Notes under the pieces: model-generated
What the model was told of the DNA's origin: nothing
The model's input: only the letters and a program-made list of their open reading frames with translations
The model's database searches: none
Shown: one piece after another, positions 1-9,381 of the stretch
Position numbering within the stretch: position 1 is the first letter of the stretch
How the letters are laid out: each line of letters opens with the position of its first letter
Program-made: the position numbers and the translations under genes
IMG/VR virus record: IMGVR_UViG_2703718792_000017
Coordinates: 1 to 35,211 of that record
Source: a virus
Taxonomy: Duplodnaviria > Heunggongvirae > Uroviricota > Caudoviricetes
Length of the DNA stretch: 35,211 bases
Strand: one strand, 5' to 3'

Positions 1-1254
1 ATGCTGGAACAAATGGGCATTGCCGCGAAGCAAGCCTCGTATAAATTAGCGCAACTCTCCAGCCGCGAAAAAAATCGTGTGCTGGAAAAAATCGCCGATG
101 AACTGGAAGCACAAAGCGAAAGTATCCTCAACGCTAACGCGCAGGATGTTGCAGACGCGCGTGCCAATGGCCTTAGCGAAGCGATGCTTGACCGTCTGGC
201 ACTGACGCCCGCACGGCTGAAAGACATTGCCGACGATGTGCGCCAGGTGTGCAATCTCGCCGATCCGGTAGGGCAGGTAATCGATGGCGGCGTACTGGAC
301 AGCGGCCTGCGTCTTGAGCGTCGTCGCGTACCGCTGGGGGTGATTGGCGTGATTTATGAAGCGCGCCCGAACGTGACGGTTGATGTTGCTTCCCTGTGCC
401 TGAAAACCGGTAACGCGGTGATCCTGCGCGGCGGCAAAGAAACCTGTCGCACTAACGCTGCAACGGTAGCGGTGATTCAGGACGCCCTGAAATCCTGCGG
501 CTTACCGGCGGGTGCCGTGCAGGCAATTGATAATCCTGACCGTGCGCTGGTCAGTGAAATGCTGCGTATGGATAAATACATCGACATGCTGATCCCGCGC
601 GGTGGGGCTGGTTTGCATAAACTGTGCCGCGAGCAGTCGACAATCCCGGTGATCACAGGCGGTATAGGCGTATGCCATATTTACGTTGATGAAAGCGCAG
701 AGATCGCTGAAGCATTAAAAGTGATCGTCAACGCGAAAACTCAGCGACCGAGCACATGTAATACGGTAGAAACGTTGCTGGTAAATAAAAACATCGCAGA
801 TAGCTTCCTGCCCGCATTAAGCAAACAAATGGCGGAAAGCGGCGTGACGTTACACGCTGATGCAGCCGCGCTGGCGCAGTTGCAGGCAGGCCCCGCGAAG
901 GTGGTGGCTGTTAAAGCCGAAGAGTATGACGATGAGTTTCTGTCATTAGATTTGAACGTCAAAATCGTTAGCGATCTGGATGACGCCATTGCCCATATTC
1001 GTGAACACGGCACGCAACACTCCGATGCGATCCTGACCCGCGATATGCGCAACGCCCAGCGTTTTGTTAACGAAGTGGATTCCTCCGCTGTTTACGTTAA
1101 CGCCTCTACGCGTTTTACCGACGGCGGCCAGTTTGGACTGGGGGCGGAAGTTGCGGTAAGCACACAAAAACTCCACGCGCGCGGCCCAATGGGGCTGGAA
1201 GCACTGACCACTTATAAGTGGATCGGCATTGGTGATTACACCATTCGTGCGTAA
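1..1254 (+). CDS. proA: gamma-glutamyl phosphate reductase ProA, complete 417 aa
   Basis: Full-length translation recognised as enterobacterial ProA ([16 protein letters not shown]... to ...[12 protein letters not shown]); ATG at 1, stop at 1252-1254. Confidence 0.95.
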
Positions 1255-1368
1255 ATAAAACCGGGTGATGCAAAAGTAGCCATTTGATTCACAAGGCCAT
1301 TGACGCATCGCCCGGTTAGTTTTAACCTTGTCCACCGTGATTCACGTTCGTGAACATGTCCTTTCAGG

Positions 1369-1444
1369 GCCGATATAGCTCAGTTGGTAGAGCAGCGCAT
1401 TCGTAATGCGAAGGTCGTAGGTTCGACTCCTATTATCGGCACCA
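1369..1444 (+). tRNA. thrW: tRNA-Thr (anticodon CGT), prophage integration target
   Basis: 76-nt sequence GCCGATATAGCTCAGTTGGTAGAGCAGCGCATTCGTAATGCGAAGGTCGTAGGTTCGACTCCTATTATCGGCACCA with cloverleaf features, CGT anticodon loop and encoded CCA; an integrase gene ends 15 bp downstream. Confidence 0.93.
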
Positions 1445-1458
1445 TTTAAATCAATAAG

Positions 1459-2622
1459 TTACACATCATTAGTACCTTCCTTATTTTTTGACTGGGACGA
1501 ATTTGGGACCGATGGGTTCAGGATCGAGTCTATTTGCCGTGCGTGTTCGGTAAGGTGATTAGGTGCAAGGTGAGCATATCGACGAACCATTTCGATAGAC
1601 TCCCAGCCTCCCATTTCCTGTAACACTGACAACGGGACTCCGGCTTGAACCAGCCAACTTGCCCAGGTGTGTCTCAAGTCGTGAAATCTGAAATCATCAA
1701 TGCCAGCCCATCTCAGCGCCGCTTTCCAGGCTGTGTTTGCGTCATACCGCATCTTCCTTACTGTTGGCGCTTTCGTTCCGTCTGGTTTGGTACAGCTTTC
1801 CTTGTACACAAATACCCAACGGTGATGATTCCCGATTTGTTTTTTCAAAACGCGACATGCAGTATCATTCAGCGCAACGCCGATTGCGCGGTTTGATTTA
1901 CTCTCTTCCGGGTTTATCCATGCCACCCGGCGCTGCATATCTATTTGTTGCCATTCAAGGTTGATGATGTTCGAGCGTCTTAAGCCTGTTGCCAGTGCAA
2001 ATTCAACAACAGACTTTAATGGCTCCGGACATTCATCAATCAGCCTTTGTGCTTCATGGGGCTCCAGCCAGCGGATCCGTTTATTCTTTGGTTGAGGCAC
2101 TTTAATAATTGGTGCCTTATCCAGCATTTTCCATTCACGCTCTGCGGCTCTTAGTAGGGCCTTTATAAATGAAAGATGCGTAGCCTTCGTTGCAACGGAC
2201 GCTGGTTTTGGCGTGTATTCTGGAACAGGTTTCCCTTTTTTTCTGCATGCTTCTGCCCTGAGTTTCCAGTTTTCCTCATGACGCCGGTTCGTCATTTTCT
2301 GCATTGCTGAATAAATTTTTGATTCAGTAATGTCTCTTAGTTGCATTCCTGCGAAATGTTGAAGCCAGAATCCGATCCGGCTTTTGTCATCGTCCAGTGA
2401 TTTTTTATGTGCTTTCTCTTCAAGCCACCTGACACACGCTTCCTCGAACGTTATATCAGGTATTTCACCAAGTTTGCTGACCCGCCATGCTTCAGCCTTT
2501 AGCTTGTCATGGAGTTCTGTCGCCTGCCTTTTGTCCTTTGTTCCAAGAGACTGTTTAAATCTTTTACCGTTCGGCAATGTGAAACTGGCGTACCATATTT
2601 CACCTCTGCGGAAGAGTGACAT
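1459..2622 (-). CDS. int: Phage integrase, tyrosine recombinase
   Basis: 387-aa ORF; C-terminal catalytic region with HDLRHTWAS ... VRRYAHL (R-H-R-Y signature); located directly beside the tRNA. Confidence 0.9.
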
Positions 2623-2849
2623 TTTCTTTCCTCTGTTATGCCATCACCCGCGCTCACCTGGACAGTATGCAGCGGAGACTGAAGAGCCGCAATGCAGGCT
2701 TGTCGTGTTGTGAGGTAAGGAGATTTATTCTTAGTGGGATCTTTGCGTGTTGCCTGAAGACGCCCTGTGCGTATCCAGTTAATGGCAGTCGGTCTGGATA
2801 TCTTGAGAAAATGACAGGCCTCATCGAGTGTGAGGCTGTATGGCTCCAT
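2499..2849 (-). CDS. xis: Excisionase-like DNA-binding protein (Xis)
   Basis: Internal Met of ORF 2499..2933 begins [31 protein letters not shown] (winged-helix excisionase-like). ATG at 2847-2849 overlaps the upstream stop (TAATG). The 3' end overlaps int by about 124 nt, so the exact stop is uncertain. Confidence 0.55.
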
Positions 2850-3154
2850 TATTTCACCTCTTGCTGTGACATTGTTGAAAAATGGATACCAGCTCGTTGC
2901 TGCCAGACGATCCAACCGAGAGTCATATCCCATGCCATGTATTCGTTATCGCCGTTTTTTGCTCTCCGACGATCTACTAAGTCACCGAAACGCTTTTCCA
3001 TGAATAATTCATAAGCTTCGCGTTCATCTGGTTCTACTTCCAGAGATAGGAGTGCGATTTCATAAGCACGGCGCTCAATATCGTCTCGCACGTCAAGGCT
3101 GCTGATACGCTCTTTAATTTCTTTAATCAGTTCTTTGTCGGTAAAAGTGGTCAT
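2849..3154 (-). CDS. Hypothetical phage early protein, 101 aa, acidic
   Basis: ORF in the leftward early operon, tightly packed with neighbours; no recognisable domain. Confidence 0.55.
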   Translation of the reverse strand: MTTFTDKELIKEIKERISSLDVRDDIERRAYEIALLSLEVEPDEREAYELFMEKRFGDLVDRRRAKNGDNEYMAWDMTLGWIVWQQRAGIHFSTMSQQEVK

Positions 3155-3516
3155 TATGCTCCAGCCTCCGGTGCTTTTGGCATTACTGCCCAGTGAGTGA
3201 TATTGACGTTTTCAAGGATCCCGACCTGAAATGTCCACTGCCATTCTCCGGTTTCTTTTTGTCCCCAGGTGTACCAGAGAGAACGCCAGCCAATTAGCCA
3301 GCCTTCTCCGTTAGCATCGAATAACAAAACACTTTCATTTGCTGGTGGCAGTTCAGTTGACACTGGTATTACTTTGTTTTCCTGTGCTGCACATTTAGCT
3401 TCAAGCGCATCGAATTTACGCACCAGGTATTCAGCATCTGTTTCATTTACTTTCAGATCTCGCGGTACACATCTCCCACGAAGAAACCCTTCCATTTCGA
3501 AAACATTCATGCGCAT
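3154..3516 (-). CDS. Hypothetical phage early protein, 120 aa, Trp-rich
   Basis: ORF in the leftward early operon, overlaps the upstream gene by 10 nt; no recognisable domain. Confidence 0.55.
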   Translation of the reverse strand: MRMNVFEMEGFLRGRCVPRDLKVNETDAEYLVRKFDALEAKCAAQENKVIPVSTELPPANESVLLFDANGEGWLIGWRSLWYTWGQKETGEWQWTFQVGILENVNITHWAVMPKAPEAGA

Positions 3517-4070
3517 TTGCGTAACTCCGATAACTCGTTAAAGCGTTCCATAAACATCCCGTAGGCATGGCCCGGTGCCAGTGGAATCACGTTGAACATC
3601 TCTGTTGCCGGGATACCTTCCAGTACAGGCCAGAAAGAGCCATCATCAAGCCCGAGATCGCGGCGTTCGGTTGCCAGCATGATGAGATCGGCATATTTCA
3701 CGGGCGTACTCATAACTGGGGGTAACCCGTATTTCTCACGGATTACGGCGTCTATTTTTTCTTCCATTTGTTTATAGTCAGGAAGAAGGCGTTTCAGTGG
3801 TGCGGGAATGTCCTGGCAATACGCTTCTGTTGCATCATGCATTAACGCTTCAAAAGCAAATTCCTGCGGCACCAGCTGGCTGCAAAGAACCGCATGTTGG
3901 GCGACGCTGTAGAAGTGCGAAAGATGACCGGCAAAGCGACAGATATTTGAAAGGGAAACCGCGATATCGTTAATATCGATGTCGTCTTTATTTATCCTGT
4001 CATAATAAAAATGCTTCCCGGAAAAAGTTTTAATAAATGACATTTTGTTCTCCACGTATATGCGCTGCAC
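3507..4070 (-). CDS. yfdR: HD-domain phosphohydrolase, YfdR-like
   Basis: 187 aa; N-terminus MSFIKTFSGKHFYYD and HD-domain metal ligands (GHLSHFYSVAQH ... LMHDATEAY); resembles CPS-53 prophage YfdR. Confidence 0.75.
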   Translation of the reverse strand: MQRIYVENKMSFIKTFSGKHFYYDRINKDDIDINDIAVSLSNICRFAGHLSHFYSVAQHAVLCSQLVPQEFAFEALMHDATEAYCQDIPAPLKRLLPDYKQMEEKIDAVIREKYGLPPVMSTPVKYADLIMLATERRDLGLDDGSFWPVLEGIPATEMFNVIPLAPGHAYGMFMERFNELSELRKCA

Positions 4071-4170
4071 CGCGCTGAATTCTGGTAAAAAGAATCCCTC
4101 ACCATCCGGCGATTATTGAGTAAATTACGTTTCCATAAATGCCCCCGCAGGGGCATTTGCAGTAATGAAA

Positions 4171-4995
4171 TCAGGCGGTGAAAGTACCAATAAAGGTTTC
4201 TACTTTGCTGTCCTTGAATTTCTCAACAAGCAGATCACGAAATTCGTTAGCCATTTCTTCCTGCACCGCCTCCAGCTGAATAATGCGCAGAACCAGTACA
4301 GGACGATCGCCAGTGATAATACTGAGGCGTAATTTAAACGGACGTTCTTTCAGACCTTCAAACGGAACGCATTTAAATTCAAATGCCACTGGCATAATGT
4401 CTTTGGTCTTCGCTTCGACAGACTCCATCAGGGAGCGTTTGCCGCTGAAGTCATTATCTTCAAAATCAGCGGTCTGGTTTGCTTCAATCGTGATTTTACG
4501 GACAGCCGCAGCCGCTTTTGTTGCCTGAATAGCGTCACCATTAGCATCAAAGCCCACAAGATAGTCGGCCCAGTCTTCAATCCATTCTGCCAGTGACTTC
4601 TGGGAGTTACGCTCGCCGTTAACAGACAACAGAGCAGAGAACGGTGCTGTCTTTTTCAGTTTGAGTGTGGCGGTGTTATCTGCGTGACCTGGTTCATCAA
4701 TAGTACCCAGGTTAAGCACACTGACGGCACGCATATTATCAGCATCGATAAAGCAGTGGGTGCCTTCATCTGCAAGATCTTTAGAATAACGGGTAAAGTC
4801 ATCGATGCTGGCAGTGGAAAGCGCACCACGGAAACGGAAGCGATTTAAATTAAATTTTTCCAGATCATGAATGCGGAAATTCTCAGGCAATGCCACAGCA
4901 TCGGCACCAATCTTACTGATAATTTCATTAACACCCTGAGCAGAAATAAGGGCATGGATTTGATTAATTGCGGTTGCGTCTAAGTTCTGAGACAT
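4171..4995 (-). CDS. yfdQ: YfdQ-like protein (DUF2303 family)
   Basis: 274-aa ORF recognised as YfdQ-like; GAGGA ribosome-binding site upstream of the ATG at 4993-4995. Confidence 0.7.
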
Positions 4996-5060
4996 AATAA
5001 GTCCTCACTATATAAAGATATTCAGTGATGAGATAAATAATCAGTTAATTAAAAACGATA

Positions 5061-5423
5061 TTAACGACCTGCTGCGCGGAGTTTTCCGTCAGGTTCACCG
5101 GCAAGAGTCAGTAACTGTCCCTGGTCTTCCTGCAGAATAGTCAGGCGACCACCGCGATTGACATACATCGGCGTTTCGGTAGTGTCTTCTTCGGAAATTT
5201 TCCCGCGGTTAGTCGGGCGAACATATGAGAGTTTGTGTTTGATTTTCACACGGTTCTCATCAAATGGTTCGATTTCCAGGTTGAGTGAGACCTTACCTTT
5301 GGTTTTCGTGTTCATCACACCGGAAGCGACTTCACTGAGAACTGCGCCGATTTTGGTTTCAAATACGCCGCCGTCCAGCTCCCCGATAAATGCCTGCACA
5401 TCAGTACTGCGTTCGCTAGCCAT
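5061..5423 (-). CDS. Hypothetical protein, YfdP-like, 120 aa
   Basis: Internal Met (MASERSTDVQAFIGELDGG...) preceded by GAGGAG 7 nt upstream. The 77-codon upstream extension of the ORF is not protein-like. Confidence 0.6.
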   Translation of the reverse strand: MASERSTDVQAFIGELDGGVFETKIGAVLSEVASGVMNTKTKGKVSLNLEIEPFDENRVKIKHKLSYVRPTNRGKISEEDTTETPMYVNRGGRLTILQEDQGQLLTLAGEPDGKLRAAGR

Positions 5424-6267
5424 TTTGCTGCTCCTCATCATATCGACCCTGCAAGGCCGATTAGTTTCTCCACAAAACAGAGAAGAACACCTGCGGTGGC
5501 TGCCGCCCGGATGGATTGGGTTATGAGCCCGTCGTCCGGTGATGCTCTTCTCTGTTTTGTAAAAAGAGCGGTACCAGCCGGAAGCAAGTGTACAAACTGG
5601 TACCGCCAAAGCAGTGGCTGTTGTGGTGGGGTTGTCACTCAGGCGTATGGTCAACCTGACAATCCGGTGTCCTCAACGGGGAAAGAGTAACCCCGCCATA
5701 CTTACCGCCGCGCCATTTCGCGGATTACCACAACGCTGAGAGCACTTAGCCAGTTACGGCACCACACTTTGTCGCGGCTCCATAAATACCCTCATCGTTG
5801 CACCCTGGTCTCTTCCCAGGCGTCAAACCGGATCGCCACGCTGGTTAGGCGTCTTATCAGCATCATCATTGACTTGCACATTCCGGCTACCTGGTTTGTT
5901 TGCCCGAGCAAGGAGTGGATTGTCCCCTTTAACGTCCCCAGACCGCTAACGACGCATGTGCCATACGCCGTGTTACAATAAAATGTTCGGTATTAGTTAC
6001 CAAAGAGACGATTACTCTTATGGTTGAATGTAATACCCCTGTTGAATATTTTCTTGTGTACTATTTGTTTTTCCTATATAACGAATTGGTTGTTTTGTTT
6101 ACATAATAAGAAGTTTTTTTAAATAAGTTTACATTGTTTTGTCTTGCTATTTTTCAAAATTCAAGAACAATGAATTGTCGCTATCGGTAATTATTCTTTA
6201 TGAAATTTTATAAATAACTCCCTGCTTTTGAGTTTTGTACGCAGTGTTTTTAGTTGTCGAGGACATA

Positions 6268-6477
6268 ATGGATAATCAAAATACTCCTGTTTTTGATGTA
6301 TGTGGTTGGTACTGTGTGCCAGTTAAAGATCATAATTCAGTTATAGTTCAACTGTCCTGCAAACAACCACCATTTGAATCTGATAAAATTATCGAAAGTC
6401 CAATATATTCTTTTCCCATAAAAGAAATACCAAATCTCATAAATACATTACAAAACATTTATGAAGAAAATAATTGA
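6268..6477 (+). CDS. Small AT-rich moron protein of unknown function, 69 aa
   Basis: ATG at 6268 with GAGGA 5 nt upstream; preceded by a very AT-rich promoter-like region and followed by an intrinsic terminator; base composition far below neighbouring phage genes. Confidence 0.55.
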   Translation: MDNQNTPVFDVCGWYCVPVKDHNSVIVQLSCKQPPFESDKIIESPIYSFPIKEIPNLINTLQNIYEENN

Positions 6478-6500
6478 TTATAAATCCAGTTCAAAAGTGA

Positions 6501-6527
6501 AGCGTCCATTTGGGCGCTTTTTTATTT
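6501..6527 (+). terminator. Rho-independent terminator downstream of the small moron gene
   Basis: Hairpin AGCGTCCA-TTT-GGGCGCT followed by TTTTTATTT. Confidence 0.55.
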
Positions 6528-6596
6528 ACGAATCATTCCGGTCTTCGTATGCCCCGGACGGCTACTTCGTGGGCGTCCTGCCTGTTCGATATCTTA

Positions 6597-6619
6597 TGTA
6601 GGTACATTATGTACCTACA
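6597..6619. promoter_or_regulatory. 23-bp perfect palindrome, operator-like site
   Basis: TGTAGGTACAT-T-ATGTACCTACA, followed by a third GGTACAT half-site at 6621-6627; shares the GGTACA half-site with the cI-cro operator. Confidence 0.45.
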
Positions 6620-6636
6620 GGGTACATTGTCAAGTA

Positions 6637-6660
6637 TAAAAAAACCTGCCGAAGCAGGTT
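6637..6660 (-). terminator. Rho-independent terminator of the cI transcript
   Basis: On the minus strand: AACCTGC-TTCG-GCAGGTT hairpin followed by a T7 run, immediately 3' of cI. Confidence 0.65.
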
Positions 6661-6672
6661 CATAGACATTGA

Positions 6673-7347
6673 TCAGGCTTTAATTTTGTATCTTCTTGGT
6701 TTTCCTGAGAAAATAACTGTACCAATGATAGAGCAATTACCGTTTATCTTAATGTAAGGCTCAGGCCAGTTGGGGTTTAATGCTTTGAGATAACGCTGTG
6801 TCCCGTCTTCTATCAACCTTTTGAAGGTGGTTTCACCTGTATCGTGCATCAATGCAATAACGTCATCGCCGTGGCAGGCTGGTACTTCTGGATCGACAAA
6901 AATCATGTCTCCCGGACGGTACTCATCAATCATTGAATCACCAATCACCCTCAATATATAAGTCATTTCGCCACAGGGTACAGGGCAGGGATACGTTTCT
7001 GTTGTGCTCAAATCAACCTCAGAATAGCCAACTTCTTTCCATGCTCCGGCCTGTACCCATGATATGACAGGGACTAACGTTATTTTTTTATTAGTGATTG
7101 AAACATCAGGTTTTTTTGTGATGTTCGTTGTCTGGTGTTCTTGATCAAGCCATCCGACAGGCAGGTCGAAACATTTTTCGATGTGCCGTGCCATGCTGTC
7201 ACCGATATTTTTAGTAGCGCCATCCCCCATAAACCTGCTGGTCTGGGTAGGCTCGCGATCAATCATGGTGGCAAAGGATGAATTTCCGCCAACACCATCT
7301 CTCAGTTTTCTGGCGTTAGACCGCCGGATGTCATGGATTGTTTTCAT
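6673..7347 (-). CDS. CI-like prophage repressor (HTH plus S24 LexA-type peptidase domain)
   Basis: 224 aa; N-terminal HTH, Ala-Gly cleavage site (QAGAW), S24 catalytic Ser in GDSM and Lys in FKRL; divergent from a cro-like gene. Confidence 0.88.
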   Translation of the reverse strand: MKTIHDIRRSNARKLRDGVGGNSSFATMIDREPTQTSRFMGDGATKNIGDSMARHIEKCFDLPVGWLDQEHQTTNITKKPDVSITNKKITLVPVISWVQAGAWKEVGYSEVDLSTTETYPCPVPCGEMTYILRVIGDSMIDEYRPGDMIFVDPEVPACHGDDVIALMHDTGETTFKRLIEDGTQRYLKALNPNWPEPYIKINGNCSIIGTVIFSGKPRRYKIKA

Positions 7348-7669: not shown

Positions 7670-8233
7670 ATGAGGCTAACCGTGGGTAAGCATCACTGGA
7701 AAGTAGAAAAACAGCCTGAGTGGTACGTGAAAGCTGTCAGAAAAACTATCGCGGCGTTGCCGGGTGGTTACGCTGAAGCGGCTGACTGGCTTGATGTAAC
7801 AGAGAATGCTTTATTCAACCGCCTTCGTGCAGATGGTGATCAGATTTTCCCGTTGGGATGGGCAATGATTTTACAGCGCGCGGCTGGCACTCACTACATT
7901 GCGGATGCTGTCGCACAGTCTGCTGGTGGGGTGTTTGTATCGCTTCCTGAAATTGAGGAAGTAGAGAACGCCGATATAAACCAGCGCCTGCTGGAAGTCA
8001 TCGAACAGATCGGGAGTTACTCAAAGCAGATTCGTTCGGCAATCGAAGATGGGGTAGTGGAGCCACATGAGCAGACAGCAATTAATGATGAGTTGTATCT
8101 GTCAATTTCGAAGCTCCAGGAGCATGCAGCACTGGTCTACAAAATCTTTTGCGCTCCAGAAAAGAGTGACGCCCGCGAGTGTGCAGCTCCGGGCGTCGTG
8201 GCGTTTTGTGTCTGTGGAGAAACTAACGCATGA
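7670..8233 (+). CDS. Hypothetical early regulatory protein in the CII position (possible CII/YdaT-like)
   Basis: 187-aa ORF immediately downstream of cro. Start could instead be GTG 7682, which has GAGG upstream. Function is inferred from position only. Confidence 0.5.
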   Translation: MRLTVGKHHWKVEKQPEWYVKAVRKTIAALPGGYAEAADWLDVTENALFNRLRADGDQIFPLGWAMILQRAAGTHYIADAVAQSAGGVFVSLPEIEEVENADINQRLLEVIEQIGSYSKQIRSAIEDGVVEPHEQTAINDELYLSISKLQEHAALVYKIFCAPEKSDARECAAPGVVAFCVCGETNA

Positions 8234-8378
8234 ACAGTTTAACGGCAAATAACCGTTTGTCGCAACAGCTGGTGGTCAGTGCCGCTGAACACCTGTTGTT
8301 ACGGCGTGAATGCAGATTACCAAATCACCTGGCTGTAAGTAACCACAGAGAACTTTACCTGACTGTGGGGGGCGAGTT

Positions 8379-8558
8379 GTGCAGGAACTTAACCGCTGGT
8401 TTCGTGACGGAAGAGGGCTCTATGTTCATGTTATTCGTTGGGAACCAGAAACACAGCGTGTTATCTATCTTCGCAAAGACTACCCGCATGAGTGCTTTAG
8501 TCCTTTGTGGAAATTCAGGCGTGATTTTGTTGAGTGTGATGGACCACCAACACATTGA
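8379..8558 (+). CDS. Possible small protein, 59 aa, GTG start, absent from the ORF track
   Basis: Frame-0 ORF VQELNRWFRDGRGLYVHVIRWEPETQRVIYLRKDYPHECFSPLWKFRRDFVECDGPPTH reads as protein-like, with a G-rich ribosome-binding site upstream; falls below the 60-aa track cut-off. Confidence 0.3.
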   Translation: MQELNRWFRDGRGLYVHVIRWEPETQRVIYLRKDYPHECFSPLWKFRRDFVECDGPPTH

Positions 8559-8644
8559 TTCTGCCATTCCGGGACGTTACACTGTTCAGGCACCTTATAA
8601 AACGGGTGCCGGGCGTGGAAACCCGGAATTCACCAAAGCGCACA

Positions 8645-8668
8645 ACCGCGCTCTTGCGGTTTTTTTGT
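8645..8668 (+). terminator. Putative intrinsic terminator (tR1-like) upstream of rha
   Basis: Short ACCGC-GCTCTT-GCGGT hairpin followed by a T7 run; lies inside the non-coding 5' part of the long ORF 8230..9381. Confidence 0.4.
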
Positions 8669-8835
8669 GTCATGAGCAGCATTACGCCCAAATTATGGTG
8701 GGGCGTGCAGGGCCAACTTCGGTTGGGCCGGGTTCTTTGGTGACCGGTATTTCCACCCCTGTACGTCTCACCACCAATAAGGTCGTGGAAAGCCTTGGTG
8801 GTGAGTTATTAAAAATCACCAAAGAGGCTGCCATC

Positions 8836-9381
8836 ATGGCTACGATCCCAACCCTCACTCAACCTGAAATTGCCATCGTTGATGGTCAGGCTGTTACTTC
8901 ATCCCTAGCTGTTGCCAACTTCTTCTCCAAACGTCATGACGATGTACTGAAAAAGATCCGCACGCTTGAATGCTCAGCATCATTCACTGCCCGCAATTTT
9001 TCGGTGAGTGATTACACTGATTGCACAGGACGCAAACTTCCTTGCTACCAAATCACACGCGACGGTTTTGCGTTTCTTGCTATGGGTTTCACGGGTAAAC
9101 GTGCTGCCCAGTTCAAAGAGGCATATATCAATGCCTTTAACCAGATGGAGAAACAGCTTTCAAAGCCCTCTGTACCGAGCGACGTTGCACATAACGCCAG
9201 CGTTCTCTATTCCTACATTTCATCAATTCATCAGGCCTGGTTGCAGCAGCTTTATCCCATGCTGGAAAAAGCTGAATCACCGCTGGCAGTAAGTCTGTAT
9301 GACCGAATTAACGATGCGGCATTTCTTGCCCGTCTTATTCATTCGTCGCTGAACTCTTCAGAGGTAAGGGGGCGCAAATGA
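8836..9381 (+). CDS. Rha-family phage regulatory protein
   Basis: Internal ATG at 8836 with AAAGAGG upstream; MATIPTLTQPEIAIVDGQAVTSSLAVANFFSKRHDDVLKKIR is typical of the Rha N-terminal domain. Confidence 0.78.
   Translation: MATIPTLTQPEIAIVDGQAVTSSLAVANFFSKRHDDVLKKIRTLECSASFTARNFSVSDYTDCTGRKLPCYQITRDGFAFLAMGFTGKRAAQFKEAYINAFNQMEKQLSKPSVPSDVAHNASVLYSYISSIHQAWLQQLYPMLEKAESPLAVSLYDRINDAAFLARLIHSSLNSSEVRGRK

Follow-up and report, generated by a model that had tools for sequence, protein, structure and literature searches.

Analysis of a 35,211-nucleotide stretch of viral DNA (IMG/VR record IMGVR_UViG_2703718792_000017, positions 1 to 35,211; hereafter the window), which corresponds to a lambdoid prophage of E. 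coli inserted at tRNA-Thr(CGU), revealed a 588-bp insertion cassette (5985..6572, + strand) encoding a protein of 69 amino acids (aa). Profile-profile comparisons established the homology of this protein to the BssS (YceP) family of biofilm regulators, of which it is a divergent, C-terminally shortened member. The cassette is a self-contained, optional add-on (a "moron") located in the leader of the leftward early operon, in the opposite orientation. In the reading that we favor, and to which we give about an even chance, it is a conversion gene, expressed in the lysogen, that alters the biofilm and signaling behavior of the host.

A divergent and shortened relative of BssS

The open reading frame (ORF) of the cassette (6268..6477, + strand) starts with ATG, and its product is recorded in RefSeq as WP_021559686.1, a "hypothetical protein". 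A word-indexed search of 5.8 billion proteins returned only E. coli relatives of this product. When a profile of the 69-aa group was compared with 1.84 billion representatives, two proteins of 84-85 aa, P0007 (E 7e-6) and P0010 (E 3.4e-4), were matched over nearly the full length. Both P0007 (31.6 bits) and its relative P0013 (27.9 bits) score above the gathering threshold (27 bits) of the Pfam BssS model (PF13991). Alignments of the BssS family (6 and 16 sequences) were built without any member of the 69-aa group; these sets include E. coli K-12 BssS, the phage proteins F1055 WAQ79492.1 and PseuP_224 WAK44842.1, IMG/VR relatives and bridging proteins. Comparison of the 69-aa group with these sets by hhalign gave a probability of 97% (E ~9e-11) over 62-63 columns. 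Residues G13, W14 and L61 of the window protein align with the invariant G15 and W16 (the N-terminal G-W motif) and L64 (in the C-terminal helix) of the BssS family.

Other comparisons were mostly negative. The 69-aa group alone did not match the single E. coli BssS sequence, tblastn of the protein against 50,697 phage records returned nothing, species genomes scanned for patterns from alignments A4 and A1 and viral contigs scanned with A4 likewise gave no match, and a word-indexed protein search with P0007 returned only P0007 itself. A weak trace of the phage BssS family (phrog_10846, "unknown function"), in line with the assignment to BssS, was found at E 0.31.

Like BssS of E. coli, the window protein is small, acidic and cytoplasmic (isoelectric point 4.4, compared with 4.8 for BssS; net charge ~-5), and the two share the N-terminal G-W motif and the core; the phage homologues are also acidic. 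The window protein has no hydrophobic segment (grand average of hydropathy, GRAVY, -0.34). It differs from BssS in its length (69 aa versus 84 aa) and in the absence of the conserved C-terminal tail ending in His, in the GC content of its gene (29% versus 45%), in being prophage- or plasmid-borne rather than part of the core chromosome, and in failing the Pfam and NCBIfam models. It is a divergent, tail-less variant of a known family and not a new kind of system. Three cysteines (C12, C16 and C31) are invariant in the 69-aa group and absent from all other BssS-family sequences compared, and H22 is common only to this group and the bridging proteins; a subgroup-specific metal site or disulfide at C12/C16/C31 (and H22) is possible.

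Remote homology analysis and structure prediction of the product, both proposed in the original prediction of this gene (made from the sequence alone), gave the BssS family and, from a six-sequence alignment, an AlphaFold2 (AF2) model with a pLDDT of 76, in which a small beta-sheet is followed by a C-terminal helix. A first model (pLDDT 67) had no significant match in the PDB by Foldseek, a search of BFVD gave nothing at E below 0.001, and we found no solved BssS structure. The AF2 model, which is of moderate confidence, resembles PUR-repeat, PC4 and Whirly-like nucleic-acid-binding folds, which also combine a beta-sheet with a helix, at a sequence identity of only 7-10%, and COMM domains match it nearly as well. 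Small domains of this kind work as dimers. PUR/PC4-like binders combine such a fold with a basic binding surface; the acidic charge of the window protein argues against nucleic-acid binding. The modeled fold is therefore likely, at low confidence, to be a protein-binding or dimerizing module.

By length alone the ORF is at chance level, since a stop-free run of 81 codons occurred in 269 of 3000 shuffles of the cassette (9%). However, the divergent copies (~78% DNA identity) keep all 69 codons, with 41-46 substitutions and no indels. The changes are distributed 12/6/23 over the first, second and third codon positions (41 differences; chi-square 10.9, p ~0.004), and dN/dS between two lineages is 0.12-0.19. 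The conserved length, the accumulation of third-position changes and the dN/dS values indicate that the ORF is a true gene, which, judged by these sequence comparisons, is under purifying selection. The original prediction had reckoned with a spurious ORF in AT-rich DNA, should conservation in related prophages be lacking; given the purifying selection, the ORF proved to be conserved.

The same data bear on the view that the cassette acts as DNA or RNA (a roadblock, an antisense element or an insulator bound by H-NS), or that it is a decaying hitch-hiker with an incidental ORF. Such a view would fit the chance-level length of the ORF, the antisense location within the early-left leader and the AT-rich composition, which is generally known to favor H-NS binding. 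It is nevertheless highly improbable in the face of selection at the protein level, of the conservation of only the ORF and 47 nt outside phages, and of the weakness of the terminator hairpin in the leftward direction (see below).

Copies of the gene were found in two further settings. Sixteen IncFIB/FIC plasmids, 15 of them from Salmonella and one from E. coli, carry a 97%-identical copy within a remnant of a prophage. In the case of the plasmid remnant L028, identity to the window reaches 98.1% in the ORF and 100% in the 47-nt region 5' of it, and amounts to 88.6% in the rest of the AT-rich tract and 86.6% in the leader. The remnant as a whole (L028/L029, locus 4129-5346) retains the leader, the cassette and part of the operator, with 90.5% identity to window 5414-6613. 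Close to it, the plasmids encode an excisionase and the binding subunit of an AB5 toxin of the subtilase family.

The ~78%-identical copies are located on chromosomal and IncF-plasmid islands of E. coli (L003/L004/L005, ~1-5260), where the DNA similarity to the window is limited to the ORF and 47 nt upstream. There, the 69-aa copy is preceded by genes for a two-partner-secretion (TPS) protein, an HMW1C-type glycosyltransferase, a DUF2919 protein and a LuxR-type regulator. The islands are flanked by IS21 and IS66 elements, and their glycosyltransferase is mis-named "cobalt ABC transporter permease" in RefSeq. The position of the copies downstream of a giant TPS protein raised the possibility of an orphan immunity gene of contact-dependent inhibition; this candidate was rejected, as no toxin-tip fragment precedes the ORF and as the gene following that of the TPS protein encodes an HMW1C-type adhesin glycosyltransferase, which identifies the system as an adhesin similar to HMW1/EtpA rather than as CdiA. 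A glycosylated adhesin of the HMW1/EtpA type together with a LuxR-type regulator provides a surface-adhesion context, which we consider a lead to the function of the gene.

An optional cassette within the leftward early leader

The boundaries of the cassette were defined relative to cassette-less prophages with the same flanks. Locus L009 represents the empty site: it contains the same yfdP, GC-rich leader and ymfK, with ~21 nt in place of 5985-6572, and in the alignment homology ends at ~5984 and starts again at ~6573. An empty-site census, performed with a query in which the two cassette flanks were fused, revealed the junction in ~562 E. coli genomes, and 30 carry the cassette; all sampled one-piece matches to the junction span 395-406 nt, as expected of empty sites. 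The full cassette was also found in 10 IMG/VR contigs. On the right, a conserved flank segment (6526..6588) is common to prophages that have an 83-aa BssS-like gene in the same slot: blastn against L015/L030/L034/L047 gave 88-91% identity, starting at 6526-6529.

The GC content is 28.6% in the AT-rich tract upstream of the ORF (5985..6267, + strand), 29.0% in the ORF (15.7% at third codon positions) and 31.5% in the whole cassette, compared with 51.7% in the window. The original prediction of a self-contained cassette with a composition unlike that of the rest of the prophage was thus borne out: this is a discrete 588-bp block that ends in a terminator of its own and that some, but not all, of the otherwise collinear prophages possess. 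In these respects it is similar to the morons of lambdoid phages as understood by Hendrix and colleagues (lambda bor and lom, for example), which likewise are units of deviant composition with their own terminator that are present in some and absent from other collinear genomes. Its place, antisense inside the early-left leader, is unusual for a moron, and its expression in the lysogen and promoter use are predicted only.

On the right side of the cassette lies the gene of a cI-like repressor of the ymfK type (6673..7347, - strand), which contains a helix-turn-helix domain and Peptidase_S24 and is convergent with the cassette gene; 195 nt separate the end of the ORF from the cI stop codon on the opposite strand. 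This interval contains the terminator of the cI-like gene (6642..6661, read from 6661 to 6642 on the - strand; dG -11.6, z -4.5) and a leftward promoter-like site (TTGACA 6633-6628, 16-nt spacer, CATAAT 6611-6606, - strand). The latter is the top promoter-like site of the window (rank 1 of ~352,000 scored positions), and is overlapped by a perfect 11-nt palindrome (6597-6619) and three GGTACAW operator-like repeats. Three further GGTACAW copies are located between cI and cro, and these two clusters together hold 6 of the 11 copies in the window. We infer that this region (6597..6633) comprises the leftward early promoter and its operators (pL/oL). The presence of a terminator, a promoter and operators between the ORF and cI places the cassette within the leftward early leader, antisense to it and convergent on cI.

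This is not the cI-rexAB arrangement of lambda, in which rexAB are co-transcribed with cI and located between cI and pL. The original prediction had placed the gene just 3' of cI, in the position of lambda rexAB or sieB. These genes do occupy the same general neighborhood (the immunity region of lambda or, in the case of sieB, of lambda and P22), but that comparison was not upheld: the window gene is on the other strand, beyond both the terminator of cI and the leftward promoter. Moreover, sieB is read in the same direction as the early-left operon and codes for a membrane protein, whereas the window gene is antisense and its product has no membrane segments; neither with rexAB nor with sieB was any homology found, and the window gene had no PADLOC match.

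The exclusion, anti-defense or small-toxin function that the original prediction had named as possible for such a cassette fared no better. A gene of that kind, expressed from the prophage, could be expected near cI, where such genes are generally known to be common, and the window gene is small, acidic and horizontally mobile. An unverified remark on a transposon screen, which mentions a depletion of bssS insertions upon challenge with phage (bioRxiv 10.1101/2025.12.01.691526), points the same way. We nevertheless consider this explanation improbable: the protein has no membrane segment, unlike SieB or RexB, no partner or antitoxin-like gene is adjacent, the gene is not co-transcribed with cI, and the sole homology found is to BssS. 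A defense or anti-defense function as such was rejected, as PADLOC gave no matches. Likewise rejected was a 32-codon hydrophobic ORF upstream of the gene (6024-6122) as a type I toxin; in plasmid copy L028 compensating indels shift its frame, and it is therefore not conserved as a protein.

As regards the expression signals, a position-weight scan identified, in the AT-rich tract, a candidate promoter (6024-6052, + strand) composed of TTGAAT (6024-6029), a 17-nt spacer and TATTTT (6047-6052), with the third-best weight-matrix score in the window; a consensus scan found no + strand sigma-70 site upstream of the ORF. The 72-nt block that contains the candidate (5985-6056) is identical in plasmid copy L028 at 71 of 72 positions, and the next ~80 nt (6057-6135) are much more diverged, which is suggestive of conservation of the promoter site. 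Since this conservation is set against a score that does not exceed the level expected from base composition, the promoter is plausible but unproven.

The original prediction had correctly identified the ORF and its ribosome-binding site GAGGA (6259-6263), which lies 4 nt before the ATG and reads GGAGG in the divergent copies. This Shine-Dalgarno sequence is part of the conserved 47-nt 5' region (6221..6267, + strand), the sole flank that can still be aligned in the ~78%-identical copies on the TPS-adhesin islands. The predicted intrinsic terminator after the ORF is also present (6499..6529, + strand); it consists of a hairpin (6499-6520) with a 9-bp stem and a 4-nt loop, followed by a T run. 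On the + strand the hairpin is stable (dG -14.6 kcal/mol, z -3.2), whereas on the - strand it is weak (-9.5, z -1.3). An RNA element within or close to the cassette was considered and rejected, since Rfam searches of 5300-6750 yielded nothing above chance level, either at the gathering threshold or with E values of up to 5.

BssS-family genes beside phage repressors

Phage BssS proteins (phrog_10846; Salmonella phage F1055 WAQ79492.1; WP_001422786.1) are encoded in the same niche as the window protein, by a small + strand gene 3' of a cI-like repressor gene. They are full-length (81-85 aa), in contrast to the window protein, and exceed the Pfam BssS threshold (62 and 67 bits for F1055 WAQ79492.1 and PseuP_224 WAK44842.1, respectively); their best local match to the window protein shows 35% identity over 37 residues. 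In the case of F1055, the BssS-like gene directly abuts the GC-rich leader, without the 280-bp AT-rich tract.

In all four GenBank phage records with a BssS-family gene, this gene lies beside cI or cro. Searches with the F1055 and PseuP_224 proteins led to 23 IMG/VR loci. A cI-like ORF is present in 20 of them, and in 18 it lies at most 700 bp away on the 3' side of the BssS-family gene (on the opposite strand in 14 of the 18); these are raw counts over loci that are not all mutually independent. Of the five repressor queries, four gave the top match in one or more of these 18 loci. In two of the loci (L031 and L036) an 83-aa BssS-like gene occupies the same slot beside a ymfK-type repressor, and homology to the window restarts at 6529, just past the cassette terminator. 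The P0007 gene lies ~600 bp from a CI-type repressor and cro, in convergent orientation. Furthermore, 13 E. coli genomes encode a RefSeq-named "bssS family protein" (WP_001422786.1), and in the one examined, this gene and a LexA-family repressor are ~400 bp apart, in a prophage of different organization. The repressors beside BssS-family genes are of several different types, in phages that range from enterobacteria to Pseudomonas.

This distribution, which also counts in favor of the conversion reading, is an argument for the view that the protein tunes the lysis-lysogeny switch of the phage itself (repressor stability, induction threshold or establishment of lysogeny) and not the behavior of the host. 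An additional hint at a theme of protein stability comes from F1055, where the neighbor between the BssS-like gene and cI encodes a mini-protein resembling the ClpX zinc finger. However, cargo expressed in lysogens is common in the immunity region, a general hotspot for it, and position by itself is therefore a weak argument; the cassette is missing from most prophages that have the same ymfK switch and is thus not needed for switching, and copies also occur outside phages, on the adhesin islands. In addition, no DinI-like gene accompanies the cassette. A role in the switch therefore seems unlikely. Also quite improbable, in our estimate, is a broader proposal, namely that the BssS family is primarily immunity-region cargo that would couple host signaling (indole, autoinducer-2 (AI-2), stress) to lysis-lysogeny or phage resistance, with chromosomal bssS as a domesticated copy and the 69-aa form as a specialized antagonist.

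As dinI is the chromosomal neighbor of bssS, a DinI link of the cassette was considered as well; it was rejected, as neither the window nor any of 28 phage loci that carry a BssS gene contains a DinI-like ORF. The F1055 mini-protein mentioned above (L015, 4328-4513, - strand) has 61 aa and comprises hardly more than a C4 zinc finger of the ClpX type (40 bits to Pfam zf-C4_ClpX). Its gene is apparently the first after the leftward promoter, and the protein could be a mimic or a competitor of ClpX.

The left flank of the slot is formed by the GC-rich leader of the leftward early operon (5427..5984, - strand), ~560 nt which have never been annotated and which separate yfdP from the leftward promoter. 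A minimum of 80% of this leader is present in at least 1150 complete genomes of E. coli. Its core (~5628-5750) is near-identical to a segment just 5' of the small RNA (sRNA) DicF in the Qin prophage of K-12. At the place of DicF in Qin, the window has a different sequence that ends in a 13-bp hairpin (5607->5568) and UCUUUUU (5567->5561). The overall fold of the leader is unremarkable (z-score -0.9), and the Rfam DicF model does not match it. The sequence at the place of DicF could be a variant of a DicF-position sRNA. The homologue of the leader in F1055 (73% DNA identity to window 5461-5746) is overlain by an annotated "hypothetical protein" of 190 aa (L015, 3419-3991, + strand). This ORF is rich in Arg, Cys and Ser, is protein-unlike in sequence and has no Pfam match; it was probably called spuriously, in DNA that is non-coding and RNA-like.

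The remaining features of this part of the prophage are tRNA-Thr(CGU) (1369-1444) followed, on the - strand, by the integrase ORF (1459-2622), yfdR (3507-4070), yfdQ/DUF2303 (4171-4995) and yfdP (5061-5426); past ymfK, the + strand carries a cro-like gene, ymfL and a Rha-type gene. Rfam identified isrK (8590-8666, +, 67.9 bits) and the C4 antisense RNA (8691-8778, +, 83.6 bits) back to back. Both lie within a 383-aa ORF (8230-9381), named a Rha-family regulator by RefSeq in a near-identical prophage, and in another relative a DUF4222 gene and a Rha gene of lesser length share this region. The split and the embedded RNAs suggest that the N-terminal part of the 383-aa ORF may be an over-extension across an RNA-based antirepressor control module.

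Possible role in the lysogen

Loss of bssS/yceP in E. coli is reported to lower intracellular indole and in this way to increase biofilm formation (PMC1899176), and to weaken colonization resistance in the mouse gut (PMC3646849); bssS is also described as stress-induced (PMC1899176, PMC3646849). It is these phenotypes that make a lysogenic-conversion cassette the best-supported reading of the 69-aa gene.

The following scheme is predicted. In the lysogen, cI would shut off the leftward promoter, and the cassette would then be transcribed from its own AT-rich upstream region, possibly from the candidate promoter at 6024-6052, the transcript being stopped by the cassette terminator before it reaches cI. 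The 69-aa protein would act like chromosomal BssS, or interfere with it, by binding a host protein, and the expected result is a shift in biofilm formation, motility and indole/AI-2 signaling of the lysogen. Upon induction, leftward early transcription would run antisense through the cassette and would be expected to silence it. Promoter use, expression in the lysogen, the mode of protein binding and the phenotype are all predictions.

Several points weigh against the conversion reading. The full cassette is rare, being present in 30 of 5426 complete E. coli genomes. The original prediction described the tract upstream of the ORF as AT-rich and promoter-like; it is certainly AT-rich, but the promoter call does not stand out from base composition, as 162 of 500 shuffles of the tract (32%) scored as well as the site at 6024-6052. 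In E. coli, AT-rich DNA is a frequent target of silencing by H-NS, and the 69-aa gene could therefore be mostly off. With regard to the assignment itself, the protein has no Pfam match (the BssS model is not matched even at E up to 10, and the same holds for its ~77%-identical relative P0002), no NCBIfam match (NF008958 included) and nothing significant in PHROGs. The query alignment is shallow (Neff ~1.2), and the homology was reached via intermediates and profile-profile scores. To our knowledge, no molecular mechanism of BssS has been established, so that the statement that the protein works like BssS predicts a phenotype and not a mechanism. Finally, the last ~15 residues of the family are absent, including an SGD-like motif and the terminal His (H84), which is invariant in 16 of 16 members; without this tail, the 69-aa protein may not act like BssS.

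The missing tail can also be read in the opposite sense, with the shortened protein as an antagonist of host BssS. Retention of the core fold, with any partner or dimer contacts, and absence of the tail would then block BssS signaling rather than add to it. This argument is purely inferential, and we found no report of BssS oligomerization; furthermore, other prophages have full-length forms of 83 aa in this slot, and truncation is therefore not required for a role in the phage. We regard antagonism as distinctly improbable.

BssS is widely used as a "biofilm gene" marker, and the present analysis shows that a divergent, tail-less relative of it travels as a discrete cassette of prophages and plasmids, and that full-length relatives are neighbors of phage repressors in many lineages. 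The most useful by-product is the link between BssS-family genes and phage repressors. Several "hypothetical proteins" encoded in E. coli and on IncF plasmids of Salmonella now have a family, and the natural variants with and without the C-terminal tail may serve to dissect the action of BssS. If the conversion reading is correct, the cassette would provide a concrete, testable case of prophages altering the community behavior of their host.

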